Source of the DNA: a virus
Taxonomy: Duplodnaviria; Caudoviricetes
Reading direction: 5' to 3' (one strand)
IMG/VR virus record: IMGVR_UViG_3300023235_000989
Location: 1-59,346 of that record
Length of the DNA: 59,346 nt
Part shown: piece by piece, positions 18,140 through 58,536 of the stretch
Position numbering within the stretch: the first letter of the stretch is position 1
Layout of the letters: every line of letters begins with the position of its first letter
Program-made: the position numbers and the translations under genes
The notes under the pieces: model-generated
Databases searched by the model: none
What the model was told of the DNA's origin: nothing
Seen by the model: only the letters and a program-made list of their open reading frames with translations

Positions 18140-18165
18140 ATTATGTGTCCGTATCCGTTTTTCGT
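18140..18165 (-). promoter_or_regulatory. putative phage promoter, copy 3
   Basis: Minus strand ACGA AAAACGGATACG GACACATAAT. Confidence 0.75.
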
Positions 18166-19951: not shown

Positions 19952-19959
19952 GTAGTATT

Positions 19960-25648: not shown

Positions 25649-25681
25649 GACACCCACCTACAGTTCCGTTCCTTGTCACAC

Positions 25682-28380: not shown

Positions 28381-28408
28381 TCTATTAGACATGTTAAAAA
28401 CCAGGGCT

Positions 28409-29224
28409 TTATGCAAATTCTTTAAGGAAATCTTTGTAGCGTTTGTAGTAGTCAGGAGACTTAAACTTCGTTTCCGTCTCTAATCCGACAGCAGATGGAC
28501 CACCGGGGTAGAACGACTGCATGGCACGCATAGCTTCGAAGTTACTACGCTCTTTGTCGGACTGCTCTAGTGAGTCCTTTCTCTGATTGTAGATACTGAA
28601 GCACGATGGGATGTCTACGCCTTTAGCACCTAGAGACATAAAGTAGAGGACGAGCCAGTAGTCGAAAGCCGACCGATACTCGTTGCCAGCCTTAATCATC
28701 AGATCCCAATCAGCCACGTCGCGCAGTTTATTATCCCAGTGAACATGCACGCCACAGCGGAAGAACTGTTGTAGGTCGAGTTCTGTATACTTCGGCGGGA
28801 TGCCCTTAGCCGTGACGATGTCGTCGACCCGCGTTTCATAACCGCCGTAGTAGAAGTGGAGCTTCTCCCAACGTAGCATGGCAGCCTGTCGATTAGCCTT
28901 GTCAGCCGCGCTTAGAACCTGCACGCCGCGCCAGGGGTAGGACCTGTCATCGCTGTTGGTGTTGCACACTATGCCACCCTTCGCTACATGCCAGCCCTCT
29001 AGCCATGACACGCCATACGGTGTTCGCTTAGTCTGCTCTAAGAGTTTGATTCTCGGGTCACGCTTCTGCCACTTCTTGATGATCTCTACGCTTCTGTCGG
29101 TTGACTCACTATCTACAATGATATGTTCGTAGTTAGGGTTACTCTGCTGGCTAAGGTTCTCGATGAGTCCATCTAGAAACTCTTCCGAGTTAAAACAGCT
29201 AGTAATAAAGGATATGTCAACCAT
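28409..29224 (-). CDS. glycosyltransferase family 2
   Basis: ISFITSCFNSE, EHIIVD..STD, NTNSDD; start moved to 29224. Confidence 0.85.
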   Translation of the reverse strand: MVDISFITSCFNSEEFLDGLIENLSQQSNPNYEHIIVDSESTDRSVEIIKKWQKRDPRIKLLEQTKRTPYGVSWLEGWHVAKGGIVCNTNSDDRSYPWRGVQVLSAADKANRQAAMLRWEKLHFYYGGYETRVDDIVTAKGIPPKYTELDLQQFFRCGVHVHWDNKLRDVADWDLMIKAGNEYRSAFDYWLVLYFMSLGAKGVDIPSCFSIYNQRKDSLEQSDKERSNFEAMRAMQSFYPGGPSAVGLETETKFKSPDYYKRYKDFLKEFA

Positions 29225-29225
29225 C

Positions 29226-29474
29226 TTAAGTCTTGATGTCAAAGACATACACCACACCATGGATGTCATGTGGGTGACGCTTAACATCAGACACACGAGG
29301 ATCGTTACCGACCTTGACGATCGTCTCTAGAAAGCGAGTCTTCTTCACTTCCGTCTTTAGATCATCGGGCGATGGCCAGACTGAAAGCCTCGCCTCGCCA
29401 GCGGTAATCGCACTACTAACCCAAGGATGCTTACGCGGCTTCTCTGGAAGCTTTGCTAGTGGTTGCTTCGTCAT
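29226..29474 (-). CDS. hypothetical protein
   Basis: 82-aa ORF with TAATG overlap. Confidence 0.6.
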   Translation of the reverse strand: MTKQPLAKLPEKPRKHPWVSSAITAGEARLSVWPSPDDLKTEVKKTRFLETIVKVGNDPRVSDVKRHPHDIHGVVYVFDIKT

Positions 29475-30517
29475 TACGCATCCACCAAGTTAAAGAGCTT
29501 GTCGTATCCTTGCTTGCCCTCTTCGGCAAAGATCCAAATCAAGGGGACATGAGTTAGGCAATATGGTGCCGCCAACTCGTGATTCATAATCTCTTCCTGT
29601 GCGTCTAGGAATGCATCCTTACGTTGCACAATCGGATGATTAGCCATGGCTGGAGGATGAATACCATCAAAGAACAGGACCGTATCCATATCTTCTGACT
29701 GAGCTAGATACTCATCAGTCTGACCGCCACGAGCATAGGCTCCTACGTCACCGTGTTTGTCCTTGCCAAGCTCCTCATCATAGAACGCCTTCTTCTCCGC
29801 GATCTCCTTATCATTATCCTTGCAGTAAGAGTAATGGTAAACTGCGAACTCAGGAAGAACGAAACGACGACTCAGATAACGAGGGTCGAAGTATGTGCAA
29901 ATCCCATCCTTGTCACGAGCAACGGGATGATTCTGATAGTTCAGTCCAGGCTGAAAGCGAATGAACCTCTGGTGTTGCTGACCCCAATCCCCACTAGGCT
30001 TACGCACATGATAGGCATCGCGCCAAAAGTGATAGAAGCCAGCGGGAACAAACTCTGTAGCCCACGGCTCCAGGCTGATGGCTTCACGAAGCTTGTCGGC
30101 AACGTCCGGCATGATAAACTCGTCAGCGTCAGTGATCAGCATCCAATCGCCCTGCTGCATGTATTGGAAGAAGCTGTTCTTTAGTTCTTCTAGGTCAGCC
30201 CATGGACGATCAATCTGCACAAAGATAATCTTCTTGTCTGGGTCCTTGTTTGCCTTCACGTCCTTGATGATCTCGACCGTGCGATCTAGCGAGTGACCAT
30301 CGGGAGTAGCCTGACCGGCAGCCGCCTTACTTTGGACTGCGCCTTCGATAACGATGATGCGATCTACCTTATCGTAGAGCTGAAGCATACACGCCTCGAC
30401 GAGCTTCTCTTCATTACAGACTTGAATGCACTGCACAATCTGAGGCTTTGCGTCAAGCGCATCAACAGTGACAGAGATCTGATTGGGAAGATTGTTATTG
30501 AATGGGTTATTAGACAT
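29474..30517 (-). CDS. glycosyltransferase family 2-like
   Basis: CNEE, DRIIVIEG, SLDRT, WMLITDADE (DxD), YHYSY; start moved to 30517 after GGAG. Confidence 0.8.
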   Translation of the reverse strand: MSNNPFNNNLPNQISVTVDALDAKPQIVQCIQVCNEEKLVEACMLQLYDKVDRIIVIEGAVQSKAAAGQATPDGHSLDRTVEIIKDVKANKDPDKKIIFVQIDRPWADLEELKNSFFQYMQQGDWMLITDADEFIMPDVADKLREAISLEPWATEFVPAGFYHFWRDAYHVRKPSGDWGQQHQRFIRFQPGLNYQNHPVARDKDGICTYFDPRYLSRRFVLPEFAVYHYSYCKDNDKEIAEKKAFYDEELGKDKHGDVGAYARGGQTDEYLAQSEDMDTVLFFDGIHPPAMANHPIVQRKDAFLDAQEEIMNHELAAPYCLTHVPLIWIFAEEGKQGYDKLFNLVDA

Positions 30518-31706
30518 TGCTAGTCTCCTTAGTCTTGCTAGCTGCAATCTCTTCAATCACAGCAAGCATTTTTGGTCCAACTACCGAGTGGTCGAACTCT
30601 GTCATGTTTGGAGCTTCAAGTGTTTGAGCCTCCTTGGCGATCTTCATTTGAACCATCATCGAAGAGACAGATGGTTCTGCGATCATGTCAAAGCTCGTGT
30701 AAAGCTCTGGGTCAGCATGTTGTTGGCTGACTAGGGGCTCCATCGAGAAGGCTATAGGATACACGTTGTCTCGTGTGCGCTCCACCTTGTATGTTGAGTG
30801 TCCATCGGGATATTCTGCTGTTTGAGCAAACTCACCCATACCACCCCAGAGGGTAGTGATCAACTTATTGCCATGGGTTAGTGCGTCGAATGCTGGAATA
30901 CACCAACCCTCACCACGCGAACTACACACGTAAGCGTCACCAGTCTTGTGGATCTTTCGGATCTGATGATCAGTTAGCGTCTTTGTTACCAGCATCACTG
31001 GAGGAAAACCATCTGCGGGAAGTCGCATACCCTGCTTTACATTATCAATGTAAGCCTTTAGCTTCTGCTGTTCCTGCGAGCGTCCCTGCATGTTCACATA
31101 GGTCTTTAATAGTAGCACGACCTCATCTTGTTTGCCATGGAATGCACCAAAATAGGCACGTAGCAAACTATCGATACCCTTCTTCTGGGAGAATTGACTG
31201 ATATTGTAGAATACAAATCGGTCCTTCAAGAAGTTAGGATCACTAGGTGACACGATTTCCTCAACGTCATCTAGAGAATAAGAGGGGATGTCGAAGGTGT
31301 GCGGCACCTTGTGGATTGGCACAGTGACACCGGAGTCCTTAAACGCCTTGACACTAGCATCGCAGAAGGTCATCACTGAGTCGAACTGGTTAAGCTTGTC
31401 CGCCCAGTAGCTAGGGATCCTTGTAGTCTCCCAAGCGACGATAGCGATGTTGACCTTGCCGGATGCTGGACGACATTCATTGGGTGTTGTATGCTGAATA
31501 ACAACATCAACATCATTTAAGCTTCCCTTGAATAGCTCTCGCTCTCGCTCTGTTGGTTTATATGAAGAGCCCGGATCTGCTTGATCGTATCTAACCGGAC
31601 GGGTTACGATATTAGCACCAGCCTCATCCAACGCCCTGACATATGCACGACTAGCTGTTGCGTATCCGCTAAAATCTCGCAGGGGTGCGATATAAAGAAT
31701 TTTCAT
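30510..31706 (-). CDS. glycosyltransferase family 4 (GT-B)
   Basis: SGYA, WET, QKKGIDSLL, SSRGEGWCIPAFDA and TLWGG. Confidence 0.9.
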   Translation of the reverse strand: MKILYIAPLRDFSGYATASRAYVRALDEAGANIVTRPVRYDQADPGSSYKPTERERELFKGSLNDVDVVIQHTTPNECRPASGKVNIAIVAWETTRIPSYWADKLNQFDSVMTFCDASVKAFKDSGVTVPIHKVPHTFDIPSYSLDDVEEIVSPSDPNFLKDRFVFYNISQFSQKKGIDSLLRAYFGAFHGKQDEVVLLLKTYVNMQGRSQEQQKLKAYIDNVKQGMRLPADGFPPVMLVTKTLTDHQIRKIHKTGDAYVCSSRGEGWCIPAFDALTHGNKLITTLWGGMGEFAQTAEYPDGHSTYKVERTRDNVYPIAFSMEPLVSQQHADPELYTSFDMIAEPSVSSMMVQMKIAKEAQTLEAPNMTEFDHSVVGPKMLAVIEEIAASKTKETSNV

Positions 31707-31790
31707 ACATGACTCCAGATTTTTCTATTATTGATAGCGCTTACTGTAGTTTGCGCTATGTCGAATTTGATATACACCATTCTTCATCAT
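31703..31790 (-). pseudogene. 88-bp scar of a GIY-YIG homing endonuclease
   Basis: One frame reads MKNGVYQIRH (N-terminus); an overlapping frame reads KFDIAQTTVSAINNRKIWSHV* (C-terminal HTH end), with ATGA overlap to the next gene. Confidence 0.75.
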
Positions 31791-33664
31791 AGAATCATTG
31801 CCTCGAACGAATCGGTGTCTTCACTGCCCACTTGCGCGGACGGTTCATTAGTCTTCCCTGCACGCATAAGCTCAACTTGATTCTGAGCCTCAGCCTGCTG
31901 ACGGAAGAAGTTAGCTATCTCGCCACGGGTCTTTTCGGCGGGGACTCCTCGCGATACTTCGACAGATAGCTTCTGCATCCAGTTACGTCGTCCGTCCTCA
32001 TCAATGTCATGCTCGGTTGCATAACCTAGCACCTTTGTGTAGCACCAGACAACGAACGCTTCGTCAGTTGCATCTGCTGGAGGTTGCTGCGCATCGATCT
32101 CAACTAGAGACACAGGCTTATCCCAGGTCTTGTCACGATCCAATGGCGTGATATGGTCTAGGATGAACTCCCATTCCTTATAGTTCTTATCCCAGTCATA
32201 ATGCTTCTCAGCACACTCGCGGGCTTCGACACTCATTGTCTTAAGTCGCTTATGATCACTTAGCATGTCACCCATCTTCTGAGCGCAGTCAGTCATAGAC
32301 GTGGCAGCACGCCAGCAAGTAGTTTCGGGCTCTTCGTAAAGCTGACTGACCTTCATTACCTCGCCACCCTTGTTGACATCGTAAGTCTTCTTGTCGATGT
32401 GGTCATAGTCAGGGACCTTGCCCTTCTCGGAGATGGCAGCGTAGTCAGTCACCAGCACTGGGATACCGCACGCCTTTCCTTCTTGGACGGGCATGCCGCA
32501 GCCTTCCGCAATACTCATCTGCACCATAATGTCAGCCATACCGTAGACTTCGGATAGCTGCTCACGAGTAAGTCCAGCTCCAGTAGTTGGAGTTCTAGCT
32601 GATTGCTGACCGCACTTAGGACACATAATTGTGTGACTTTGGCGTAGGTTAATTGAAGGAGCAACAAACACATCACCACATGTTGTGTTATGACACATGA
32701 ATGTCGAACATACTTCTCGAATGATTCCCTTGCGAGTTACCGGGATACCGTGAGTGCCAGTTTGGATGCGGGCAATAGCACGAGGGAAGTCGATTGACAT
32801 AGCGTTGTCTGGCCATGCAGTATGCATAAGCAAAATTGACTTCTGCACGGTCTCATCATCCGGGAACGCCTTCTTCATAAGCGCGAACGACTGGATGACT
32901 TCCGAGATACGCTTTCGAGCTTGGTTTCGCTGCACCAGCAAGATGATTGGCACGTCAGGCTTGAGACCCCACTTTTGCCTCAGCTCCGCCTTAGCCTTAT
33001 CGTCACGCGGATGGAACGTCTTCAGGTCAACACCTGGACGCATTGGCACAGGGTGTAGCTTGCCGGGCATCTTATCAATACCAATGAACCCAGGCTTGCC
33101 CGGTGGGTCAGAGCGTAACTCTAGACGTGGCGAAGACTTGCGAAGCGAGTCAATACCAAAGTCGGAGTATGCCATGACATAGGTAGCACCGTTATAGGTG
33201 TTGATCCATTCTTCCTTCTGAGGGATCGAGTCAACAGTCGGCATTACCAACCAGTTGAAGTATTTGCGGAATGGGCTTCGCTCTTGGAATGCGACCATCC
33301 ACCAGTCACGAATATCAATTACGATATCAGGACGAAAATCAGAAAGAACATGCTCGAACTTCCATCGACCAAACTGATTAGTGTTCTGTCCTGGCTGAGC
33401 CGGATCCTGCTGTTGGAATACCTGCTCCTCTTCAGGAGTCATTGGTTGGTTGCCGTAGAACTTCCACCGGCCTCGGATAGATCCCTTGATACGGGGATCA
33501 TCATCCCTGGCATAGGAACCGAACTCCGCAATCTCATACTTACCAGTCGCAGCAAGGCGAGGCAGTAGTTGATCGTAGATATTAGAAAATCCCGTGTTTA
33601 GAAAAGACGCTTCTCCGACAAAGAGAATGCGCTTCTTGTAGTCTTCTTTACTCTCGACACCCAT
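31787..33664 (-). CDS. glycosyltransferase family 4 with Cys4 insertion and DUF4214-like C-terminal domain
   Basis: TGF, PGVD...F.P, RNQARK, AEGCGMPVQEGKACGIP; CHNTTC...CPKC insertion; TDEAFV..CY..VLG...DEDG...W. Confidence 0.85.
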   Translation of the reverse strand: MGVESKEDYKKRILFVGEASFLNTGFSNIYDQLLPRLAATGKYEIAEFGSYARDDDPRIKGSIRGRWKFYGNQPMTPEEEQVFQQQDPAQPGQNTNQFGRWKFEHVLSDFRPDIVIDIRDWWMVAFQERSPFRKYFNWLVMPTVDSIPQKEEWINTYNGATYVMAYSDFGIDSLRKSSPRLELRSDPPGKPGFIGIDKMPGKLHPVPMRPGVDLKTFHPRDDKAKAELRQKWGLKPDVPIILLVQRNQARKRISEVIQSFALMKKAFPDDETVQKSILLMHTAWPDNAMSIDFPRAIARIQTGTHGIPVTRKGIIREVCSTFMCHNTTCGDVFVAPSINLRQSHTIMCPKCGQQSARTPTTGAGLTREQLSEVYGMADIMVQMSIAEGCGMPVQEGKACGIPVLVTDYAAISEKGKVPDYDHIDKKTYDVNKGGEVMKVSQLYEEPETTCWRAATSMTDCAQKMGDMLSDHKRLKTMSVEARECAEKHYDWDKNYKEWEFILDHITPLDRDKTWDKPVSLVEIDAQQPPADATDEAFVVWCYTKVLGYATEHDIDEDGRRNWMQKLSVEVSRGVPAEKTRGEIANFFRQQAEAQNQVELMRAGKTNEPSAQVGSEDTDSFEAMIL

Positions 33665-46587: not shown

Positions 46588-49500
46588 TTAGCTAAATCTC
46601 AGGAAGTTCTGTCTATTCGAAACAAAGAAGCTCCCAACCCTTGTAGAGCCATCGCCTGGAGTGGTGGGGTTTGTGCTTAAGACCTCGGCGGTCATTAAGA
46701 TCCCCTTGTCACCTACGATTATGAACTCCGGGTTTGGGAACGGCGTCACGTCGCCCTCTGGAATAGCGCTCTGATCTAGATTACCGTTATCCGTAAGACC
46801 CTGCACTGTCACTATAGCACCAGATGTCCCCACATTAGTTATAGCCGTAACCTGCACTGGGGTTGAAGAGTTACCACCAGGGTTTAGGAATACGCCAGGA
46901 GTCTCAAGCGTTGCACCTGGGCGCTCTAGGACTCTGGGGGTTCCATTACTTGCTTGCGAGGCAAGGGTGGTGAGGTCTCCAAGATTAACCGCGCCGTTGA
47001 GAAGCGGAACGTTAACGAGACGACGAACAGGATCGGTGTCCAGTAGAGCCACATCAAACGTGTTAGAAGACGTTCCTACGCCACTGACAAACACAACCGT
47101 GCCATTAGAGAATGGACGCCCACCAGTCCAGTAACGTTGAATTTCGCGCCCCTGCCCCGGAAGCCTAAGCTCGTTTACGTGATAGAGCGCTTCGTCACCG
47201 ACATTTAAGAATCCGTCTACACAGACGGAGCCACCACGACCAGCACCAGTCTCAAAGTTTGGATCAGAGCTGCCGGGAGACTTCGCAGGAACGGTATAGT
47301 CTTGTGCGGTTATACCACGATACCTTTCTTGTGTTCCCGCGTCTGGAGTGTTGGAGAATGTTAGCGCAAAGTTGACTTCATTGATTGTTGCCTTGCGAAT
47401 GGTCTCACCCTTACCTCGTGGCGCACCAATGATGTTAGGCGGCTGGGGGCGCGCACGGCTACGCGTGCCTGGGGCTAAGGGGCTGGCTATGTCGAAGTTG
47501 ATTGGTGTGATGATGCCATTTAAGATCGAGCGCTGACGCTCACCAAGTGGTGCATCCTTGCCAAATTCAGCAAAGAAACTAGCAATACGATAGTTGCTTC
47601 TAATACCAGCAGTTCCAAGAGTGAAGTTTACCTCGGTGATACCATGGTTGCGAACACCAATAATCCCACTTGCGTTAGGTGAAGAGTTGGAAAATGAGTC
47701 AAAGGAAATCTTAGGAAGTCCAACTAGTTCAATTGCAGAGAACTGAGAGTTAGCCGCTGGAGCAATCAGTCCCTGAAGACGACGGAACGCACGATCTTCC
47801 ATAAGCTGGATAGACGTTGTGCGACCTTGTGGTGGGAAGTTCCATGGGCCAAACTGATCATCAATGACGATCGACTCTGAATCACATGGTGTAGCTAGTT
47901 CCCCACTTACCCACGCCTGTGGAAACGACATGCCGTATCTCTCAGTAAACTCTACTGGGATCGCGACACCATCCAACCTGATGTATGGATCGATAAGGAT
48001 ACCCGGATCAACGAAATCTACGATACCAGAACCAGATGACTCTAGCGCGTCTTCAGTTAGCGTTACTAGGTTGCGGAACGTAAAGTTCTCACTCGATCCA
48101 GTGCCTGCAATAATAGGGATCTCAGCTAGGAGTGTGCCTTCTGGGTATTCTTCAAACGCCCTTAGTGGGTCACGTGGATCAATAGTTAGCTGGCCTACTT
48201 CCGTCAAGGTGATAGGAATATAGTGCTCTCCGGTGCGAGTCCGACGACCTGAATCAGCAGTCGTGTTGCCAATATTATAGTCCTCGGTCCATTGACCGAA
48301 TCCCGCTGGTGCATCCTCGCCTTCTGGACCATAAACCGTTCCGGAAGGAAGAACACAGTATGCAGAAATCTTATCGTCGGTTCCTTTGAATGGCGAAAGT
48401 GGACTTAGGTCACGGTTGATCTCATAGTTGTTTACGAAGAGACCACTAGAACCACCTGTTGAGATGCCTTGTCCCTCCATCTGGTTCTCTACATTACCCC
48501 ATGCTGCATTGGCTAATTTGAATGCACCCGAAGCTGCATTGACTAGAATACCAGAAGCGATATAGGCACGACCAAAGAAGCGTGTCGCATGGTCACGGAC
48601 ACGGTTGTAGAAATTAAGGACCCAGTTCTGATTAGCGTCGCGGCGGTTATTGATAAGACGGATCTGACCAGACTCGTTACCGCCAAGTGCAGCAATCGGC
48701 TGCGCTGGATCATATCGACTTTCGAAGTCAGGATGTTGCGCGGCAATACTACCGGCATCAATTGGCTGACCAAAACCCGGTGACGTAAGACTAATGTCCG
48801 CTGCGTTAGTCTGATACTTTTTGAAGTATGTCCAATGCTCGATCCCCTTTAGGGCAGCCTGTAGTTCTAGATCGCTTGGCTTGTAGCCACGCAGAATACC
48901 AACAGCATCTGTAAACTGAACTGAAAAATTAGGCCAAGCTGGCTGAAAAACAACTCCAGACTCAGGTGCTGGCACTCCATCAATTCCACCTAGTAGCGGA
49001 GAGTTGAGCCAACCTTCTTGGTGAGCACCAAGTAGACGAACGCGACGTGGTTGGGTAACTAAGTCATCACCATACTGCAAGCTAACCGTTTGCTCTAGAC
49101 CACTTACGGACCCTAAACCTGCTACGATGTTGAGTAGCTCATCCTCACGTAGGTCGAATGCAACCTTTCTATTGACTAGACGAACCTTCTGCTCGGACAT
49201 ACTCCAATACCAGTCATACGCAGTGGCTTCTAGAATACGAGTGAGGGCTTCTGTTAGTGGCGTTCCATCAAAGTTAAACCTAACGGCTGATGCGTCACCG
49301 CCCAAGTTAGCCTCAAGGTCTTCTTTAGATGGGATTTTATCAAGGTCGAAAAGAATCTCGCCCTCGTCGATTGCAAGCTGAATCGCATCCAAGATCTGAG
49401 GGTATGTGCAGCCTTGCTCAAGGACAAGGCGATACTCTCTGAATAGCGGCTCTGAGACATTCCCGTCAATATTAGTGAACCCCTTCGTGATGCGAACTCC

Positions 49501-49950
49501 ACGAGCTACAGAGACCGAGCCCGACCCAGGGTTGTTTCCTAGGTCTTCTGTAATTAGCTTAATGGCATCTAGACAACGACGGTTGTCACGGATGTTTACT
49601 TGGATGATTGAGCCCTGCGAGTTAGCGCTATACTCAGAGTGAGTGATCTCACCGCTAGCTAGGAACTCTCCAACCGTAAAGCCGATGATGCTGCCGGGTG
49701 CGGGAGCTTGACCACTAGCGCCATGGAACGCCTTCGGGTCGTCACGGGTTGGCACCCACGTGGTGTTGAACGAGTGAGGAGTCGTGTTGAATCCAAACGT
49801 TGCATTGATCTGAATCAACGCCGCTTCAAGATCACGTCCTGGCGCTCCTGCCGGGATCTGACCAGATGGAAACATTATGATAGGCTGACAGTCACCTAGA
49901 CCGAGCCCCTCAACGTTTATCTGTTGGCCTGTGATATTGAAGTTTGCCAT
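46588..49950 (-). CDS. large putative virion (tail/baseplate hub-like) protein
   Basis: 1120 aa, G/S/T/N-rich, Lys-poor, in the structural block; no catalytic motif seen. Confidence 0.6.
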   Translation of the reverse strand: MANFNITGQQINVEGLGLGDCQPIIMFPSGQIPAGAPGRDLEAALIQINATFGFNTTPHSFNTTWVPTRDDPKAFHGASGQAPAPGSIIGFTVGEFLASGEITHSEYSANSQGSIIQVNIRDNRRCLDAIKLITEDLGNNPGSGSVSVARGVRITKGFTNIDGNVSEPLFREYRLVLEQGCTYPQILDAIQLAIDEGEILFDLDKIPSKEDLEANLGGDASAVRFNFDGTPLTEALTRILEATAYDWYWSMSEQKVRLVNRKVAFDLREDELLNIVAGLGSVSGLEQTVSLQYGDDLVTQPRRVRLLGAHQEGWLNSPLLGGIDGVPAPESGVVFQPAWPNFSVQFTDAVGILRGYKPSDLELQAALKGIEHWTYFKKYQTNAADISLTSPGFGQPIDAGSIAAQHPDFESRYDPAQPIAALGGNESGQIRLINNRRDANQNWVLNFYNRVRDHATRFFGRAYIASGILVNAASGAFKLANAAWGNVENQMEGQGISTGGSSGLFVNNYEINRDLSPLSPFKGTDDKISAYCVLPSGTVYGPEGEDAPAGFGQWTEDYNIGNTTADSGRRTRTGEHYIPITLTEVGQLTIDPRDPLRAFEEYPEGTLLAEIPIIAGTGSSENFTFRNLVTLTEDALESSGSGIVDFVDPGILIDPYIRLDGVAIPVEFTERYGMSFPQAWVSGELATPCDSESIVIDDQFGPWNFPPQGRTTSIQLMEDRAFRRLQGLIAPAANSQFSAIELVGLPKISFDSFSNSSPNASGIIGVRNHGITEVNFTLGTAGIRSNYRIASFFAEFGKDAPLGERQRSILNGIITPINFDIASPLAPGTRSRARPQPPNIIGAPRGKGETIRKATINEVNFALTFSNTPDAGTQERYRGITAQDYTVPAKSPGSSDPNFETGAGRGGSVCVDGFLNVGDEALYHVNELRLPGQGREIQRYWTGGRPFSNGTVVFVSGVGTSSNTFDVALLDTDPVRRLVNVPLLNGAVNLGDLTTLASQASNGTPRVLERPGATLETPGVFLNPGGNSSTPVQVTAITNVGTSGAIVTVQGLTDNGNLDQSAIPEGDVTPFPNPEFIIVGDKGILMTAEVLSTNPTTPGDGSTRVGSFFVSNRQNFLRFS

Positions 49951-49951
49951 G

Positions 49952-50431
49952 TTAGCTGATTAGTCCTAGCCTTCCAGAGTGCTTTGCGTTCTTACTAAAG
50001 TCACGGTTTTCGGTAGTCACCCTTCCATGGTGCGAATCAACCCAATGAATCGTAAGGGTCTCGCCGTGTAGTTCACCAAACCCCTGAGCCTCATCCTGAT
50101 AGTTGGCGAAGTGTGGGTTCTGCGACATCATTCTGCGGACGCGCTTGCTATAGAAGTAGCCATCCGCCTGAGATGTCAAGTTGATTTGGGCGACTGGGTT
50201 AAGATCCTGTCTAGCAAACGACATGCCAATTATTTTGCAGTCATTGTCTACACAGTATCGTTTTAGACGAAGCCATGGGTTTGGCTCCTCTAGCGAGGGG
50301 TCCTCAAGCGTTTGATAAACTTCAATTCCACAACTAAGAAAAACAACCCAAAATCTCCATAACGGACACTCTTCTATTCTAGTTGCTAAATTATACGGCG
50401 TCTCTTTTATCACATCTCGATAGTCTTTCAT
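49952..50431 (-). CDS. hypothetical protein
   Basis: 159-aa ORF with GGGA upstream. Confidence 0.65.
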   Translation of the reverse strand: MKDYRDVIKETPYNLATRIEECPLWRFWVVFLSCGIEVYQTLEDPSLEEPNPWLRLKRYCVDNDCKIIGMSFARQDLNPVAQINLTSQADGYFYSKRVRRMMSQNPHFANYQDEAQGFGELHGETLTIHWVDSHHGRVTTENRDFSKNAKHSGRLGLIS

Positions 50432-50818
50432 ATGTGTCCCATCCTTTTATTGTTATACCACTCCAACTTTTCCCATACTTGATTCGTTTAATGACATGAA
50501 TACTAACACCGAATATTGATGCAATCTCATGTTCGTTCATTCCACCAACAAGCATATCCTTTATTTTACTAACCCTCGACTCATCTAACAGTGCGCGTGG
50601 GTTTTTAGACCCAGTATTATTAGAACTCATTTTGGCTCTAGTTTCGAGAGACGCCCTGATACCAAGTTTTGCACGACGAATCCTATCCTTTGTCAAATCG
50701 GATGTTTTGACTCCAAGTCTACTACCAGCAATCTTATATTAAATCCCTTACCAGCAGCACTGCCAATATAACACTTACCTGTTTTTAAGTGTTGGATCTG
50801 ATAGACCCCATTTTGCAT
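50391..50818 (-). pseudogene. internally deleted, frameshifted GIY-YIG homing endonuclease
   Basis: ATG at 50818 reads MQNGVYQIQHLKTGKCYIGSAAGKGFNIR; another frame continues KIAGSRLGVKTS...(NUMOD3-like)...GSKNPRALL + HTH; the rest of the nuclease domain is missing. Confidence 0.8.
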
Positions 50819-51489
50819 TAAAGGAACTCTATGACCATAAAAAGTCCAAAGTCACTCCGCTGCCCCGCCGCTTCCGGTGATGCCGAAAGTCCGATGAAGA
50901 AGTCATGAACAAGATTGCTTACATTACGATCTTGTAATAGAAGACGATTATCAATCGCGCCAGCGCCAGCAGTCTGAGTCCAGGTAGCGTCCGCTCCTGG
51001 TTCATATCCCTGTATCTTGAGACCGGTCACGACAGAGCTTACGTCATCAACACCACTAGCTGCGTTTAGGGCTACGGTGTAGAGGATGGCATTCTGAGTT
51101 CTAACCTCGGTAGATCCAGATGCTTCAAATCTAGCTAGGATAGTGCCAGACTCTGGGGTCACATTGATCAGAGCAACCTCACCTAGACCACTAACATTGA
51201 CAGTGCTAGTTGAAACATACTTGTGGTTGATAAGCTGACCACTAGCTGGGACGCCATATGGCTCTTGCCCTAAATTGGTCCCGCTTGTGTTGGTGATAAA
51301 GGTTAAGTCCTGATAGCGGCTTACAATAACCGCAAACGGGACACCTTCCGGTCCTCCCGCTCCAAAGAATCCGACGTGATTAGCGCCACTGGTGTTACCC
51401 GGTGGATCCAACGACTCAATCGGCACCAAACTCGTAAAGTTTGAGCTTGCTGGCGATCCGGATGGAGCGTAAAAAGTAAGAGTATTCAT
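50818..51489 (-). CDS. putative virion structural protein
   Basis: 223 aa, beta-rich composition, 8 SG dipeptides, GGAGAGG RBS. Confidence 0.6.
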   Translation of the reverse strand: MNTLTFYAPSGSPASSNFTSLVPIESLDPPGNTSGANHVGFFGAGGPEGVPFAVIVSRYQDLTFITNTSGTNLGQEPYGVPASGQLINHKYVSTSTVNVSGLGEVALINVTPESGTILARFEASGSTEVRTQNAILYTVALNAASGVDDVSSVVTGLKIQGYEPGADATWTQTAGAGAIDNRLLLQDRNVSNLVHDFFIGLSASPEAAGQRSDFGLFMVIEFL

Positions 51490-51502
51490 TGTGGCCTCTC
51501 CT

Positions 51503-51516
51503 GGTGACTAGTCACC
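51503..51516. repeat. perfect 14-bp palindrome GGTGACTAGTCACC
   Basis: Lies between the TTAGTGTATAA element and the RBS of 50818..51489. Confidence 0.7.
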
Positions 51517-51520
51517 TATG

Positions 51521-51531
51521 TTATACACTAA
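51521..51531 (-). promoter_or_regulatory. possible second-class promoter element TTAGTGTATAA
   Basis: Identical to 10370-10380; at a gene boundary in the structural block. Confidence 0.35.
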
Positions 51532-53723
51532 ATGTTTAGGACGGCTGCGCGCCCACTGAGAATTACGTCGGTGGCAGCTACCTGGTTAATATGAACGATC
51601 TGGAAAGATGAGTTCATCTTGGCGAAGTAAGATGGTCCAGCAAATCGTGTGGTAAAATACAAGTAATGCAAGCTGGTCACTGGATCCCATACTGCGGGAC
51701 CATACGTATCAACTGTGGACGGCGTCATCGGCACGTCTGGAGCAAAACTGATGGTCGCCGAACCCGCTGGTGTAATCGCCATCGAGTTTGGAATTGTGAA
51801 TTGGTTGTTCGTCGTTACGGATAATCTGATCTTCCAGCTAGGGTAGAAACCAACAATATAGGTTGTTGACGAGTGTGACGTAGAAGGTGTTAGAGTTGAA
51901 GTTCTCGCGACCGTGCTAATGGGCGCGAACTTATCATTCTTGGGTAGGATCGGAATCTGTAATGCACCAACATCACTCCATTGAATATACGTCGAGCCGT
52001 TAATATGCACAAAGCCATGACCGGGCTTGCGATTGAAAAAGAACGACATGATGTTTCCGATATCGTAAGTGTCAGAAAAGAACTCGATGTTCTGTGAGTA
52101 AAAGAGTGGTGACTCGGGAGGGTCTAGTTCGATCCATTGGAATTCGCCGTTGGCTGGGTTTGTTCCCTCTCTGTAGACATGTCTCTCGAAATCAATAGTC
52201 TCTGTTCTCTTGTCTCCACCACCAGAACGATCCTGACCTGGACATACCATACGATCTAGGGCTCCCCACTCGTTATATGCCTTGAACCATACAACTCCGT
52301 CCCCCGCCGCGTTGATATCTCCAATAGTCCATGTCGTGCCACCATACAAATTAGGCTGATATGAAGTCACAAATTCTTGCGACCAATTGGCTGGTGATAA
52401 AGTATTGTCTAGAGTTGCCCAGTCGACTATCGACAAACCATTTGATGTATTAGACGAGCTTACACCACCAAACGCATAGATGGTGTTTCCATTAACATAC
52501 TTCAGTGTTGATGAAACGTTCCCACCTCGCGGGCTGGTCTCTGATCCAACGAAGTGACCGAACACCTTTTTACCATTGATGAGACTTCTACCTACCGCTA
52601 GGTTGTTAGCATTGAACTCACCTAGACCATAAAGAAGCCTGCTTGTGTTATGAACTCCAGGATGAGCAATTCCATTCTTGTTGATGCCACTAGTTGCTGA
52701 GTAGTTAGCAGGATAGTTTTGAATGACCAAGCCACTACCGCCATCATCAGAAACATCTAGAAGATAAACTGTATCGTCCGTCAAAGGGCCAGGAACGTTA
52801 TAGATCGCCTGCCTACCAGATGCGTTGATACATCCACTATTCTGAGTCTCGTAGTATCTGTTAAGTTCCTCACCCGCTGGGAATTGAGCCCATTCAACGT
52901 TCTCTCTAAATGTTCCTTGCGGTGCCGCAAACTGTCCGGAACCTGTGAGGAGCTTAATGCTCGTCCCTGCCACAAGTCTATCACCAGTGATGATCATACC
53001 GCCAGATGTAGCTGCATCAAAACCAAGCTTGCCAAAGTTCTCTTTGTCTAGGTCACTGAATGTTGGTAGATTACCATCCACAAGAACCGCTGGGAATACT
53101 GGCTCTAGTGGTATGTCACTAGGTCCGACCCTTGGTTCCTTTGGACGGGTGAATGGCTGCCACATCACTTCATCAAGGTCAATGTCTTGGAACTGTTGGG
53201 CACCTAGCTCAACCGTGTCGCCAGATGTGACCAAGCTTGATGGAGCAACTGGCACCGTATTCACTGGCGCGGGATGCACATACTCTAGATCGCTTGTTCC
53301 TGACGCACTTGTGTTGGGAATGTCGTAGATCGCACGATTACGCTGCATGTGTGCAATGAAGAACTCATCTGCCGAGTATTGAGAGTCCCCGGCGTGAAGG
53401 GCTGTAACTTCTTCTAGCAGGGTCCTCATATCGAGGATGTAGTCTGCGTAATGTGGAGTCGCAGCCTCATAGCCACTAGCATTTAAGGTCGGCTCAATAG
53501 ACTGAGAAAGTCCTGCATCCCTATTGATGTAGAGCTTGATCGGAGTATTTACTGGATGGCTACTAGCTGTCGTAAATAGACGCTTATCAAGCAGTAGACC
53601 GAAAGCCGGGATAGAGAAGTAGCGCCCCTCATACGCTACTAGATCTTGGAGACCAAGCCTGAATGGTTCGCGTGAGTAAGGATATGGTCGATGTAGAAAT
53701 TCAAATCCGCTTGGGCACGTCAT
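51528..53723 (-). CDS. putative virion structural (tail-associated) protein
   Basis: 731 aa, S/T/G/N-rich, in the structural block. Confidence 0.6.
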   Translation of the reverse strand: MTCPSGFEFLHRPYPYSREPFRLGLQDLVAYEGRYFSIPAFGLLLDKRLFTTASSHPVNTPIKLYINRDAGLSQSIEPTLNASGYEAATPHYADYILDMRTLLEEVTALHAGDSQYSADEFFIAHMQRNRAIYDIPNTSASGTSDLEYVHPAPVNTVPVAPSSLVTSGDTVELGAQQFQDIDLDEVMWQPFTRPKEPRVGPSDIPLEPVFPAVLVDGNLPTFSDLDKENFGKLGFDAATSGGMIITGDRLVAGTSIKLLTGSGQFAAPQGTFRENVEWAQFPAGEELNRYYETQNSGCINASGRQAIYNVPGPLTDDTVYLLDVSDDGGSGLVIQNYPANYSATSGINKNGIAHPGVHNTSRLLYGLGEFNANNLAVGRSLINGKKVFGHFVGSETSPRGGNVSSTLKYVNGNTIYAFGGVSSSNTSNGLSIVDWATLDNTLSPANWSQEFVTSYQPNLYGGTTWTIGDINAAGDGVVWFKAYNEWGALDRMVCPGQDRSGGGDKRTETIDFERHVYREGTNPANGEFQWIELDPPESPLFYSQNIEFFSDTYDIGNIMSFFFNRKPGHGFVHINGSTYIQWSDVGALQIPILPKNDKFAPISTVARTSTLTPSTSHSSTTYIVGFYPSWKIRLSVTTNNQFTIPNSMAITPAGSATISFAPDVPMTPSTVDTYGPAVWDPVTSLHYLYFTTRFAGPSYFAKMNSSFQIVHINQVAATDVILSGRAAVLNI

Positions 53724-53726
53724 GAT

Positions 53727-53948
53727 TTATGATAGAAATTCAATGATCTTTTCATGACAGCAAGAACAGGATGGGCAATCTGTATCGCTATAGTGAGATA
53801 AAGTTTCGTCTTTTAGATTCTGCCTAGCCAATCCTCTTCGTTTTAAAATACAGAATCTACATGTCATGTATTTGACACTATAGAAATCGGAATACGGTCT
53901 TGTCTCGTTACAACTACGACATTCCTTTTCTCCCATCCTGCCATCCAT
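53727..53948 (-). pseudogene. truncated Cys-rich HNH-type homing endonuclease
   Basis: CRSC...F...CRFC zinc finger, then HY...CSCCHE....FLS*, stopping where the IDH catalytic motif would normally follow; AT-rich. Confidence 0.6.
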
Positions 53949-53949
53949 A

Positions 53950-56900
53950 TTATTCCACCCCAATTGCCGTAGACACAATTCCCCATGAACCGCTTACAGC
54001 CCAAACTGCATTATAATGCCCCGGCATGGTATAATCATGTGTCTTAACAGAATTGGCGAACTGCGTTCCGCTAGGTGTCTCCATGCTATTCATCAAGCTT
54101 TCTTGCTGATCGCAGAAGTTCGTATATTCTAATATACCACTTGTCGTTTCTAGGTCGGCGTGATGAGTGAAGAATACTCGATGGATAGCACTGCCACTTA
54201 GTGGTGTCCCAGAAATTGAGATAGACGGCAAGCTAGCAAGATATGTTCCAGATTCAGAACCACTTGGAACAAGCAAGAATTCTCTCACGCAACTAGAACG
54301 ATACCCATAGCTATCCAATACTTCAATTGCTACGTTGTAGAGTCCCGGAGTTTCAAAAGTCCTTGATGCTTGGTATAGACCACTGAATGACACTCCATCA
54401 ACTAGGGTTCCATCTTCACCCTTCTTGAAGTCGGCGAACGTAAACCTCACCTTGCTGACATCCTTCTGATCCTGGGCGATGCCGCTTCCCTCTACCGTCA
54501 AAGTATAAGGAGTTCCAGACGCAATCAAGCCGACCTCTGGCATTTCCAAAGTGCAGACCGGTGGTTGGGTTATTCTGATTACACCGAGCCTAGAGTCAAA
54601 GCCATAGATCTCAGTCTTTTCTACACCAAGACGTGCGTCAAAATCCTTTGAGGTTACAATCTCAAACGTGAGGGTTACATCAAACTCATCCAGTGTCTGA
54701 CATGCACCAAAGGTATAGGATCCGAGTAGTCCGCTCACGATACCAAGACCGTGCATGAAGTGACCAAATATACCGCTTTGAGAAGCTATACCATGGGTGA
54801 ATCCACCAGTCAAGCCACTAGCGAAAGCGCGACCATGAATAAAGCCACCATACTCATTGACGATGCCGGACACACCACTGATACTACCACCGAATAGATC
54901 AATGTCTTGACCTAGACCATGCATGTATGCGCCGATCATACCCGACACTATTTCCTGGTTGATACCACTCATCCACATACCATACGTGGAGTTGATAGTT
55001 CCAGCGTTACTCGTGAAATTGTAGGAATTTGCTGCTAGTCCAGAAATCTCAGGTAGGGTCAATACCCTACTGAATAGCATTGTGTCATCTAGAACACCAG
55101 AGAATGCGCTACCGCCATTGACGGCATTACCCTCTTGGTCTCCACGACCACCAAGCGAGAGACCAGAGTTGTTCGCTACAATCTCCCCAAGTGGGGTGAA
55201 TGAGGTGCCAGCATAGCGACCATTGACGATCACACCAAACTCGTTGTTGTCTTGATCGTAAGTAACAGCTAGATGATTCCATTCTTGTGGAGCTAGATCA
55301 CCATTCTGTCCAGACACACTGCTATTAGCCGCAAGTGCTTGTGCGGTAAGTGAACTTTGAGGTGTGAATACCTTGATGCCGGTTGGTGATGCGGATGGAC
55401 CACTTCCCTTATTCATGATTACATGAAGATCGGTAGCACTGGGGATGGGTGGCTTGAGCCAAGTCAACATGGTCCACGATTGGGTTCCAGAGCCAAGATC
55501 AAGACGGCGAGATCCTGGGTTTGATGGAATTGTATCTAGGTATTCCAATCGACGGACTACGACACCACTAGAGTGGACAGACCCTTCCACACCGACCTTA
55601 TGCCCGTCAGTATTGATTGGGAATAGGGTATTGTTTTCCCTACCGAAGTCTAGAACCTTATTTCCAGCCTTGTCAAACTTCCAGTGGCTGATATTAGCTG
55701 GGTCCGTAACCGACACATCCCCACTGACCAAGACGATATCATCGATAGCTCCACGCTTGGTGCGAATCCAACTAGCGTCATCTAGATGACCAAGATGCAT
55801 GAACGCCAGTCCCATCCTGGTGGTCTGTGGGAATCCATAATCTAGATTTGGAGCATTCAGGATACTGAATCCACTAGCGCCCACTGCCTGTGGGATCTGA
55901 TCAGATAGTCCGAATGTTTCATCAATAGCGTATCTTACCTCTACCGTCTCACTCAGTTCAGCTTGCACCACCTGAGCCCGTAAGGCAAAACCTGATGAGA
56001 ACACATTGCAACCAATGAAGAATGGGCTGTTGAATGGCACCTCGTTTTCGGAGGTGTATTCAACTAGTGATGATGCGCTATCTCTAAACTTGATGTGTGG
56101 TTTGTTGTCTTGAATACCAAGGAACCACGACTGCTCTGTGGATACCTGTGACCATGCTCCCATGATCATATGATCACCGTCTAGACCACTACTACCATGT
56201 CCCTCGGAGCCTAAATCGCCAGAAGGTAGGTATACCCAAGCGCCAGCGGAGAATCCGCTCGTAGCAAACAGATTCTGTGCGGAGGCATCTAGGTTATCCC
56301 CATGAAGAACTCTCTCAAGCGACATCATAGATCCGCTAAGTGAGACATTCAATCCGCTACTCACTGACGAAAGTTCTGTGTTGAGTCTACCACCAAGCGT
56401 AAAGAGACCACTAGTGTTGGTCAGGTGATGTGAATACCAACTATGATCATCTAGCCTAATGCCAGAAACAAATGTTGGGTCATAGTTTACGAATTCGTCC
56501 AAAGGCCAGTATCCCACCAACGCCTTTTGCGGAGTGCTAAGAACTGGTCCTGGTGCCGGGGTCGCAATATTGGCTAGACCGAATCCAGACATCTCTGGGA
56601 TAGACAAGATCCTATTGTAAACAGCAAAGCTGTCGAATTCCACCGACCGCACATTCTGCGGGGCAAATCCAAACCAACCAGCCTCTCCGTCTAGTCCGTC
56701 TGATGCAAATCCAGATGCTGATGAGATTTGCTGGGTCATCTGAAAGACCGTCTTCGCATCTCTGACCATATACATCTGGCCACATTTGACATCGAATACA
56801 CCAGCCCATAGATGCCAGCCGTCATCACCTGTATCAAATTCCGGATCCGAAACAGATGACGAATTACTTAAGCCAAGTTGACCGCCATATGAATTTGTCG

Positions 56901-58536
56901 CATCGCTGTTTCGTGATGTAAATCTAACGCTAGGTAGTGTTCCTATGCCTGTTCCACTAGCTAGTGCATTGACGGATAACGCATTTGTATTACCACCGAC
57001 ACCACCATTTTGAGACTCGGCAAAGAAATTATTGTGACGACCATCACGACCGAACCATCCAAATCCACCACCGACAAGATTCGTGCCAGTGGGAACTGAC
57101 CTCATCCATCCAATAACAGTCATACCCTCATCTACGGTATGTCCACTTGGGAATAGTAGGGAGAGACCACTGTTCGCTGGAATCAGCGGATATGCCTTTG
57201 ACGCCCGTAGGGCTTCACCACCAGTAGCGCCTAGGATGCTTTGGTCACCCAGAACCCTAATCGCACGACCGCCCCCTATGCCATCGACAAACGACATCTG
57301 AGATGGAGTTCCACTAAGAGATAGGTTTAGTCTTGGGTCAGTTAAGGTATCTGGTGCTGTGTTATCACCATTGTCACTATCAAATCCCCAGTATGCTACT
57401 AGACCGCTTGACTGAGGAAACTCTGGAACGAATCCACTGCTTTCCGGATTGGACGTTTCGATATACCGCATGCCGCTAAGTGCATAATGCGCGATTTGAT
57501 CCTGATCGAGATTACCATCTGCTACATATACGACTTCGTCAATCTCTCCACCGTTAGGTAGGTGTCTATTAGTTGTCGTGCCATCTCTAACTCCTTCCGA
57601 GCTAGACCCAAACGTCATCGGGTTGCCACCAATTCCTGGCCCGGCGTAGTTTGCAACGATGTTTGGCCCTCTGAACATTATGGAGCTAGATCCGATGATA
57701 CCGCTCTCGGCAGTGCCGACCCAAATCGTCATCTGCCCACTGCCATTAGCAGTAAAGCTACGGTTCTCTTCTACGTCTTCTCTTCTAACCTGAGCGGCGA
57801 AAAAGAATGGTTCATATGGATTACCCGGAAAGTTAGGGACAGCCTCGTTTCTAACCGCAGCATCAACAAACCATCCTGGGTCGTTGGTAACAGTAACACC
57901 ATGAACAATTGAACCGTTGAGTGGACTGATAAGGTTGGCTTCCGATGCCATAATGAGAGAAATAGCCATTGAGTCGCCGGGTGGGGAATGACTAGCAATG
58001 TCCTGCCATGTCACACGCCACTGCACCATGCTTCCCAATCCACCCTCTTGAGTGGATCGACTAACGATGTTTTGTGCTGTGCTAACTCCTGGCGACTTCC
58101 TTCCTGGGCGACACCAGCCAATGACGGTGAACCCAGAATACATTGCAACTCCGTGACTAAGAGTTCCATGTGTCTCATTAGAAGCGGCGTAATTTTCGAT
58201 TACGGTATCTGAAGGAACATAAATCGTATCAGCGTTAGCTCCATCATCCCAAAGAAATCTGATGCCACTTCCGTCGAGTGCCCATGGGGCTAATCCCGAC
58301 GTTGGTTGTATTAACGCTTCAGGAGTATCAGAAATGAAGTATGGCTTAAGGTGATGCTTCTGAGGACCAGAATCAACTAGAAGACCAGAGAGATAGTTAG
58401 TCGAGGTCTGCTCTTCCGGAGTCTGGAAATTATTCTTAGGCGTATCGTCGCCAAAGCGCCACCAGCCTTGAATCAGGGGGTTGTCACTTCTCCAATAATC
58501 GTAGTTCGATCCGTTAGGTTGCCACTCGCGTGTCAT
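53950..58536 (-). CDS. large tail fibre/adhesin-like virion protein with several LamG (concanavalin-like) domains and PKD-like C-terminal modules
   Basis: Repeated LVAYWGFD/LVGYWPLD/ISHWKFD domain starts, WNHLAVTYD, FSGVLDD..LFSRVL, and C-terminal TPGLYNV and HDYTMPGHY. Confidence 0.75.
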   Translation of the reverse strand: MTREWQPNGSNYDYWRSDNPLIQGWWRFGDDTPKNNFQTPEEQTSTNYLSGLLVDSGPQKHHLKPYFISDTPEALIQPTSGLAPWALDGSGIRFLWDDGANADTIYVPSDTVIENYAASNETHGTLSHGVAMYSGFTVIGWCRPGRKSPGVSTAQNIVSRSTQEGGLGSMVQWRVTWQDIASHSPPGDSMAISLIMASEANLISPLNGSIVHGVTVTNDPGWFVDAAVRNEAVPNFPGNPYEPFFFAAQVRREDVEENRSFTANGSGQMTIWVGTAESGIIGSSSIMFRGPNIVANYAGPGIGGNPMTFGSSSEGVRDGTTTNRHLPNGGEIDEVVYVADGNLDQDQIAHYALSGMRYIETSNPESSGFVPEFPQSSGLVAYWGFDSDNGDNTAPDTLTDPRLNLSLSGTPSQMSFVDGIGGGRAIRVLGDQSILGATGGEALRASKAYPLIPANSGLSLLFPSGHTVDEGMTVIGWMRSVPTGTNLVGGGFGWFGRDGRHNNFFAESQNGGVGGNTNALSVNALASGTGIGTLPSVRFTSRNSDATNSYGGQLGLSNSSSVSDPEFDTGDDGWHLWAGVFDVKCGQMYMVRDAKTVFQMTQQISSASGFASDGLDGEAGWFGFAPQNVRSVEFDSFAVYNRILSIPEMSGFGLANIATPAPGPVLSTPQKALVGYWPLDEFVNYDPTFVSGIRLDDHSWYSHHLTNTSGLFTLGGRLNTELSSVSSGLNVSLSGSMMSLERVLHGDNLDASAQNLFATSGFSAGAWVYLPSGDLGSEGHGSSGLDGDHMIMGAWSQVSTEQSWFLGIQDNKPHIKFRDSASSLVEYTSENEVPFNSPFFIGCNVFSSGFALRAQVVQAELSETVEVRYAIDETFGLSDQIPQAVGASGFSILNAPNLDYGFPQTTRMGLAFMHLGHLDDASWIRTKRGAIDDIVLVSGDVSVTDPANISHWKFDKAGNKVLDFGRENNTLFPINTDGHKVGVEGSVHSSGVVVRRLEYLDTIPSNPGSRRLDLGSGTQSWTMLTWLKPPIPSATDLHVIMNKGSGPSASPTGIKVFTPQSSLTAQALAANSSVSGQNGDLAPQEWNHLAVTYDQDNNEFGVIVNGRYAGTSFTPLGEIVANNSGLSLGGRGDQEGNAVNGGSAFSGVLDDTMLFSRVLTLPEISGLAANSYNFTSNAGTINSTYGMWMSGINQEIVSGMIGAYMHGLGQDIDLFGGSISGVSGIVNEYGGFIHGRAFASGLTGGFTHGIASQSGIFGHFMHGLGIVSGLLGSYTFGACQTLDEFDVTLTFEIVTSKDFDARLGVEKTEIYGFDSRLGVIRITQPPVCTLEMPEVGLIASGTPYTLTVEGSGIAQDQKDVSKVRFTFADFKKGEDGTLVDGVSFSGLYQASRTFETPGLYNVAIEVLDSYGYRSSCVREFLLVPSGSESGTYLASLPSISISGTPLSGSAIHRVFFTHHADLETTSGILEYTNFCDQQESLMNSMETPSGTQFANSVKTHDYTMPGHYNAVWAVSGSWGIVSTAIGVE

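Follow-up and report, generated by a model that had tools for sequence, protein, structure and literature searches.

Serine-glycine pairs are in directional excess in four tail proteins

The DNA analysed here (the window) is a whole virus record of 59,346 bases in which every gene lies on the minus strand. Four of its proteins, of 1528, 731, 223 and 1120 amino acids (aa; p1528, p731, p223 and p1120), are predicted to belong to the tail tip or baseplate and contain the dipeptide Ser-Gly (SG) far more often than their composition predicts. The enrichment is directional and under selection. The number of pairs made of a capping residue and a following Gly is ordinary in these proteins; what is unusual is that Ser stands in the place of Asn or Asp, and that it does so in certain virion proteins only. 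We interpret the SG pairs as a turn motif, cap plus glycine, in which selection has favoured Ser specifically in the outer tail proteins, and we put the chances of this reading at about even. The four genes are listed below, with the SG expectation derived from composition and the significance from 2000 shuffles per protein.

53950..58536, minus strand: 1528-aa multi-LamG protein, predicted tail tip; SG 50, Gly-Ser (GS) 21, SG expected 21.3, z 7.1, count reached in 0 of 2000 shuffles
51528..53723, minus strand: 731-aa protein, fold unassigned, syntenic in seven loci; SG 12, GS 5, SG expected 5.8, z 2.9, shuffle fraction 0.0085
50818..51489, minus strand: 223-aa beta-sandwich protein; SG 8, GS 2, SG expected 2.6, z 3.8, shuffle fraction 0.003
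46588..49950, minus strand: 1120-aa protein, the most conserved of the block; SG 18, GS 13, SG expected 8.9, z 3.4, shuffle fraction 0.0025

The original prediction rested on hand counts of p1528 and p223, which prove exact, including the six Thr-Gly pairs (TG) of p1528. The excess of SG and its direction hold after shuffling in all four proteins, p1120 and p731, where recurrent SG had been noted, among them; pooled, the four contain 88 SG and 41 GS for 38.6 SG expected. Among all 400 dipeptides of p1528, SG is the strongest outlier and the runner-up reaches z 3.6. The window's enzymes had been thought free of the bias, and its other 56 open reading frames (ORFs) indeed show none, with 62 SG and 71 GS for 66.1 SG expected and no ORF above z 2.95. 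The sites had also been described as dispersed rather than tandem. This is correct for 42 of the 50 sites of p1528 but not for the remaining eight, which lie in a periodic stretch at residues ~1185-1280.

A signal in the DNA itself, such as a favoured hexamer or the site of a DNA-binding or DNA-modifying enzyme, might yield SG codon pairs, and Ser codons before Gly do end in T in 72% of the SG pairs versus 35% elsewhere. However, SG-coding hexamers occur 50 times in frame and only 2 and 10 times in the other sense frames, the pairs draw on both Ser codon classes (AGY 49, TCN 39) and on 19 different hexamers, and conservation of the amino acids extends to homologues with as little as 36% identity. 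Moreover, a T-ending codon before Gly is general in the genome (in the other genes, 41% of codons before Gly versus 28% of codons elsewhere). A DNA-level cause was rejected on the frame-0-only excess and this genome-wide codon-context habit, and we regard it as extremely improbable. The T-ending preference before Gly holds also for Ala, Thr and Gly, with values of 56-72% for Gly-Gly and Ala-Gly pairs.

Serines of SG pairs are selectively conserved

The 61 homologues of p1528 (36-85% identity, 57 full length) lie on contigs of up to 183 kb. These homologues and one 25%-identical relative all have an observed to expected ratio (O/E) for SG of 2.0-3.3 (median 2.67), with GS near 1.2. In an alignment of 59 sequences of this family, Ser is conserved at 82% within SG and 36% elsewhere, and Gly at 86% and 57% respectively. 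SG is retained in at least 90% of 58 homologues at 31 of the 50 sites, and in all 58 at 12 sites. When 30 sequences are aligned, 20 serines are invariant, and 17 of these belong to SG pairs. Columns holding the same dipeptide in at least 80% of the 59 sequences number 35 for SG and 0-4 for each of nine other dipeptides. Lineage-specific pairs amount to just 2.8 per sequence for SG and 8.1 for GS in the 59 sequences. The commonest substitutes of Ser at the 50 sites (2900 cells) are T (97), D (83), E (60), A (45) and N (43), the ratio of Ser to Thr being 2372:97.

The other three proteins behave similarly. With six homologues each, the conservation of Ser in SG compared with other Ser is 0.69 versus 0.38 in p731, 0.90 versus 0.44 in p223 and 0.90 versus 0.54 in p1120, and 116 homologues of p223 give 0.87 versus 0.35. 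No such difference is seen in the neighbouring p159, p156 or RecA. The selection on SG supposed in the original prediction is thus borne out in all four proteins, as the Ser of SG sites is far more conserved than other Ser.

At site 69 of p223, SG is present in the window, in its closest relative and in three paralogues, while NG occurs in five other lineages, DG in two and VG in one. Pooling 13 p223-like proteins from all lineages gives 93 SG for 36.8 expected, with 61 GS. Those of distant lineages have 5-9 SG apiece, at positions shared only in part: the 93 SG fill 29 alignment columns, of which 12 are common to at least four sequences. A profile of the distant p223 relatives led to 42 further loci.

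The sites also have characteristic flanks. The residue after Gly is L, I, V, F or M at 32 of the 50 sites of p1528, for a background of 27%, and L, I, V, F, M, W or Y at 49% of 521 sites in SG-rich proteins of other lineages, for a background of 33%. Basic residues occupy position -1 in 0-3% of cases in SG-rich proteins versus a background of 7-8%; at the SG sites of other window proteins the figure is 16%, versus 15% background.

Serine takes the place of asparagine and aspartate before glycine

LamG-rich proteins outside the p1528 family were collected by a library-wide search with one LamG domain, and seven family-like rows (SG O/E 2.3-3.9) were set aside. The 135 controls have a pooled SG O/E of 1.26 (median 1.22, 95th percentile 1.90, maximum 2.19). 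In 23 proteins of phage T4, 21 of them virion proteins, 61 SG are found for 51.5 expected (1.18), with a maximum z of 1.6. A generic property of LamG domains or of tail proteins was rejected on these figures. The table below gives, for each protein set, the O/E of the four pairs, of their sum (S+N+D+T), and the share of Ser among them; G001 is a complete related genome described further on.

58 family members: SG 2.68, NG 0.87, DG 0.74, TG 0.52; S+N+D+T 1.38; Ser share 0.67
135 LamG controls: SG 1.26, NG 1.57, DG 1.69, TG 0.94; S+N+D+T 1.34; Ser share 0.26
G001 tail-tip and fibre set: SG 2.55, NG 0.83, DG 0.88, TG 0.85; S+N+D+T 1.41; Ser share 0.59
G001 remaining ORFs: SG 1.00, NG 1.26, DG 1.24, TG 0.92; S+N+D+T 1.10; Ser share 0.25

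Since the S+N+D+T total of the family is close to that of the controls, the number of cap-plus-Gly pairs is ordinary, and only the identity of the cap has shifted.

Asn-Gly deamidates and Asp-Gly isomerises quickly. Ser could therefore have replaced Asn and Asp before Gly in exposed turns of the host-recognition apparatus, where long-lived virions would suffer from such lability. The table is in keeping with this idea in that NG and DG of the family are about half those of the LamG controls with the total unchanged, and in that the shift affects the tail-tip and fibre proteins of G001 and spares the rest of its proteome. However, NG and DG are still present, the four window proteins holding 20 NG and 22 DG (O/E 0.86 and 0.98), and the depletion of the chemically stable TG is left unexplained. 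Furthermore, other giant proteins of the same genomes retain NG and DG, and T4 virion proteins show no such shift. We consider avoidance of lability very unlikely.

SG sites in the structural models

In p1528, Pfam identifies a Laminin_G_3 domain (PF13385) with 57.2 bits against a cut-off of 27.6 (E 2.9e-15). All 58 homologues have SG at each of its sites NSG (1124), FSG (1146) and ISG (1165); 4qvs, the closest LamG domain of solved structure, has SKG, LHG and IKT there. Three regions of the protein are distinguished.

55042..55485, minus strand: LamG_3 domain, residues 1018-1165 (Pfam)
54697..54984, minus strand: periodic stretch, residues ~1185-1280, read from the sequence, with 8 of the 50 SG
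54292..54528, minus strand: PKD-like beta-sandwich, residues ~1337-1415 (PKD_4 E 0.0016, PKD E 0.0089, both below cut-off)

The AlphaFold model covers residues 361-1528, with a mean predicted local distance difference test (pLDDT) of 75.4. It consists of tandem LamG sandwiches, the periodic stretch, which is unmodelled, and C-terminal sandwiches. In Foldseek the model resembles laminin LG and neurexin LNS domains in tandem, as well as sialidase lectin domains (E 3e-12 to 1e-7), with TM-scores that are low owing to its multi-domain nature. The PKD-like region is modelled entirely as strands (pLDDT 83-90). The Gly/His-rich periodic stretch is built of units of ~13-14 aa of the form S-G-hydrophobic-x-G-x-hydrophobic-x-H-G, in which SG is 76-100% conserved. 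Its pLDDT is 25-40 (model residues 817-961, corresponding to 1177-1321 of the protein), and it may fold only as an oligomer. Blocks with a pLDDT of 70 or more contain 28 SG, 17 of them in coil, seven in strand and four in helix; at seven of the confident sites a strand begins within two residues.

The model of p223 is a confident sandwich (pLDDT 85.9, predicted TM-score 0.85) in which all eight SG are placed in loops, at strand edges or at the ends of short helical turns. This protein has no sequence match in the PDB, and no clear fold match was found by Foldseek (best E 0.01 in the PDB and 0.006 in BFVD) or in a VIA-wide comparison, whose best Z of 5.4, to a pilin, reflects a generic sandwich. 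Apart from LamG_3 and the weak PKD of p1528, the four proteins have no family match in Pfam or PHROG; for p1120 there was no PDB sequence match either, and an Atlas look-up gave no family name. A tblastn search of p1528 against 50,697 phage records returned no match.

The SG pairs may accordingly be viewed, in the reading we favour, as a two-residue structural device at fixed places of outer tail proteins. The small polar residue would end or cap a strand or short helix, Gly would adopt a left-handed backbone conformation, and the next residue, often hydrophobic, would begin the following strand. The cap place would be filled in most proteins by Asn or Asp and less often by Ser or Thr. In some of the tail-tip, baseplate and fibre proteins of this phage lineage, nearly every cap would be Ser, maintained by purifying selection. 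Covalent modification would not be needed for the pattern.

Motifs with a cap residue and a left-handed Gly include the type I turn with G1 bulge and the Schellman helix C-cap. The unchanged cap-Gly total, the fixed sites, the interchange of S, N and D and the hydrophobic residue after Gly fit such known motifs. As in these motifs, Gly is conserved while S, T, D and N interchange before it (Gly at 86%, and S, N, D or V at site 69 of p223), a hydrophobic residue often follows, some sites, notably in the p223 model, may be at strand or helix ends, and the total frequency equals that of ordinary LamG proteins. The phage motif differs from them in its near-exclusive Ser and depleted Thr, in the lack of variation of Ser where N, D, K, A or R would also suit the fold, in having some sites within strands or helices, and in being confined to chosen outer virion proteins.

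The excess is limited to outer tail proteins of related phages

The gene order p190-p1528-p731-p223-p159-p1120-p156-RecA is common to seven IMG/VR loci, one of which is the complete 176,061-bp record G001 with direct terminal repeats. In G001, the SG-rich block comes after a 2216-aa tape-measure gene, downstream of terminase, portal and putative head protein genes; from this position, p1528, p731, p223 and p1120 are predicted to be tail-tip or baseplate proteins. Across the seven loci, p1120 is 70-86% identical and the adjacent RecA-like protein 52-80%. The distribution of SG in G001 is as follows.

10 ORFs after the tape measure: SG 113, expected 44.5
Separate fibre block, 3 ORFs: SG 31, expected 11.9
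19 ORFs, terminase to tape measure: SG 53, expected 38.2
Tape measure alone: SG 12, expected 12.6
Remaining 207 ORFs: SG 155, expected 155.4

The 13 tail-tip and fibre ORFs together thus have 144 SG for 56.4 expected, while the putative major head protein is not enriched (2 for 1.4).

Nine whole related records were scanned for SG-rich ORFs, taken as those with five or more SG and z of 3 or higher. In seven of them, 4-9 ORFs each pass this screen; in the complete genomes G016 and G007, none does, although their p223-like proteins are included in the enriched pool described above. A 4141-aa ORF of the scanned relatives has 90 SG for 33.1 expected. A 1320-aa ORF of G024 (L070:2547-6509) reaches 72 SG for 18.6 expected (z about 12), or about one per 18 residues; it has recurring R-A-S-G-L-I and T-S-G-V-L, has no Pfam match and appears fibrous.

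A few SG motifs could have been multiplied by duplication of LamG domains or short repeats and then merely inherited, as a historical accident. The eight sites of the periodic stretch would suit this account, as would a C-terminal helix motif, P-E-[IM]-S-G-[FL], which the LamG repeats carry more than once (sites 650 and 1165, and in weaker form 354 and 938). On the other hand, BLAST reveals no self-similarity within the 13 SG-rich ORFs of G001, the same excess is found in unrelated proteins, and the conservation of Ser at SG sites far above that of other Ser in four separate families points to selection rather than mere inheritance. Such an accident is, in our judgement, very unlikely.

What a turn motif leaves unexplained

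Several observations weigh against the cap-plus-glycine turn as a complete explanation, among them that it leaves the preference of Ser over Asn and Asp unexplained. Asn and Asp are the usual residues before Gly in the LamG controls, and no reason for Ser is apparent in the fold. At the position of site 1146, 503 of 557 control LamG domains keep the Gly, preceded by N in 95, D in 78, K in 56, S in 50 and A in 38, with R also accepted; all 58 family members have Ser. Thr should be acceptable if capping were the only role, and yet TG is depleted to 0.52 in the family. According to DSSP, seven of the 28 confident sites of p1528 are within strands and three are mid-helix, the fourth helical site being the first residue of its helix; control LamG domains have Ala-Ala or Gln-Ala at mid-helix positions (helix site 1165).

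The distribution among proteins raises the same difficulty. BLAST links just two pairs among the 13 SG-rich ORFs of G001, and the SG-rich giants of other lineages carry FG-GAP, YWTD, RCC1 or LamG/PKD domains, or no known domain. An excess shared by unrelated proteins requires some common cause that affects chosen proteins. Enzymes, tape measure, portal and terminase of the same genome have no SG excess. Other giant proteins of the same genomes also retain NG and DG, such as a 1366-aa ORF of G021 with 14 NG for 8.1 expected. Taken together, the exclusive Ser, the loss of Thr, the invariance at sites on which the fold places little constraint and the parallel shift among selected, unrelated proteins suggest that the fold alone is insufficient, and they fit a Ser-specific modification.

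Serine-specific O-glycosylation and the sugar island

Following the original prediction in part, SG, or the Ser of a cap-Gly turn, could be the acceptor of a phage-encoded, Ser-specific cytoplasmic O-glycosyltransferase that would place sugars at dozens of fixed turns. Structural niche and sequon would then be the same sites. We hold this to be possible but doubtful. Besides the Ser specificity, the invariance of Ser where the LamG fold accepts many residues and the parallel excess in unrelated proteins of outer virion parts only, it would account for the flank signature, namely the scarcity of basic residues at -1, which control SG sites lack. It would also suit the persistence of SG density in distant p223-like proteins whose positions are only partly shared. 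In addition, the window contains genes for sugar synthesis and transfer.

13674..33664, minus strand: sugar island (Pfam and NCBIfam matches); given as context, any link to SG being hypothetical

The island comprises genes for a GDP-mannose 4,6-dehydratase (GMD), a GDP-fucose-synthase-like reductase, two DegT aminotransferases, a sugar N-formyltransferase-like protein and a methyltransferase, together with about eight glycosyltransferase (GT)-like ORFs. Besides the two GTs named below, candidates of this kind lie at 17197-18084, 18293-19009, 19960-20967, 23738-24466, 24752-25657, 28409-29296 and 29474-30556. Judging by family names only, it appears able to make an N-formylated 4-amino-4,6-dideoxyhexose. 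IMPDH/GMP-reductase-like and xanthine phosphoribosyltransferase-like genes are located inside it at 26212-27694. GMD (13674-14765), a 398-aa GT (30510-31706) and a 625-aa GT (31787-33664) have BLAST homologues in nine of nine whole relatives, and these three may serve a core function that has nothing to do with the SG trait. Most other island genes were found by BLAST only in the closest relative, G001, and partly in G006, so that the SG trait is far wider than most of the island.

The genomic distribution of the enzymes argues against O-glycosylation. Of 23 related records, 22 have a GT2 match, a PF13524 match occurs in 9 of 9, and no GT-free relative was found for comparison among these related records. 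In G016 and G007, GMD and the two conserved GTs are accompanied by PF13524 and GT2 matches, and nevertheless no ORF passes the SG screen. BLAST clustering into 1181 families yielded no GT family restricted to SG-rich genomes. The sole family present in at least six SG-rich genomes and in neither SG-poor genome is ClpP-like, in a comparison that is underpowered by being at the BLAST level with just two SG-poor genomes. No GT family thus appears to track the SG trait, a test made weak by the two SG-poor genomes. No TibC-type model match was obtained either: PF01075 (GT9-related heptosyltransferase) matches 0 of 9 related whole records, and TIGR04414 none of the 25 window proteins scanned. A 295-aa ORF (17197-18084) has a sub-threshold N-terminal match to heptosyltransferase I (NCBIfam, 44 bits versus a cut-off of 185) and a weak PDB match to 3tov (E 0.012).

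Two features of the sites themselves also count against this explanation. The cap-Gly total does not exceed that of LamG controls, so that no extra sites have been added, and there is almost no lineage-specific gain of SG sites. Finally, glycosylation is here a prediction from sequence. In its widest form, the proposal would be that a superfamily of uncultured 125-180-kb aquatic phages uses SG at cap-Gly turns as a strict O-glycosyltransferase acceptor, its adhesins and fibres being glycosylated, perhaps with an N-formylated amino-deoxyhexose; we advance it only tentatively.

Comparison with known glycosylation systems

The eukaryotic xylosyltransferase that initiates proteoglycan chains modifies a Ser followed by Gly, with acidic residues nearby and often in the form SGxG. 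The parallel drawn with this motif in the original prediction extends to the Ser followed by Gly and no further. SGxG is found at 6 of the 88 sites and at least two acidic residues at -4 to -1 at 1 of 88, the phage flanks being hydrophobic or small, not acidic. No xylosyltransferase-related enzyme family was found in the window with Pfam and NCBIfam.

A precedent is offered by Aah and TibC, which act on the Escherichia coli autotransporters AIDA-I and TibA and modify many Ser of these adhesins in the cytoplasm (PMC3835316; PMC4358343). As heptosyltransferases of beta-rich adhesins, they are described as modifying Ser at the loop start of a strand-loop-strand motif (PMC3835316), and neither paper reports a sequence consensus. 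Several SG sites of p223 have a similar loop-start placement in its predicted model. Unlike these targets, the phage proteins are only candidates for modification, and their pair is strictly SG; no TibC-type or GT9 match was found with Pfam in the nine whole relatives.

In mycobacteriophages, phage-encoded glycosyltransferases modify virion proteins, according to Freeman et al. 2023 as cited in PMC12619734. The glycans are there reported at the C-termini of capsid and tail-tube subunits, unlike the candidate sites considered here, which are dispersed in tail-tip and fibre proteins, with no enrichment in the putative major head protein of G001. A literature search found no description of a Ser-Gly motif in phage virion proteins.

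Other features of the window

Replication and nucleotide enzymes of the window include Pol III alpha, RecA-like and DnaB-like proteins, a primase, a ThyX-like protein, a class II ribonucleotide reductase, a dUTPase and a dCMP deaminase. There are also several homing endonucleases. ORFs of this kind are found at 50391-50696 (HNH/HTH-like), 19208-19951 (GIY-YIG with NUMOD3) and 12188-12952 (HNH-like). The ORF at 50391-50696 separates the tail genes for p223 and p159; in three of the seven related loci (L002, L003 and L004), only 11-15 bases lie between these two genes.

The homologues P0026, P0086 and P0136 bear source labels of Nitrososphaerales, Thorarchaeota or Saprospiraceae metagenome bins. 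Because the homologues in them are phage tail genes, these bins probably contain phage contigs.

Significance

Whatever its cause, the SG excess offers an easy way to recognise some of the outer tail proteins in a poorly annotated phage group, most of whose SG-rich outer tail proteins match no family. If the serines are unmodified, these phages would provide a clean natural case in which selection has reversed the customary choice of Asn or Asp before turn glycines within a single functional class of proteins, with a bearing on protein design and virion stability. If they are modified, SG would be a predictable sequence motif for phage virion glycosylation, with candidate enzymes and substrates at hand, including the small, well-folding 223-aa protein. 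Should SG prove to be a sequon, phage virions would have their first O-glycosylation sequon defined by sequence.

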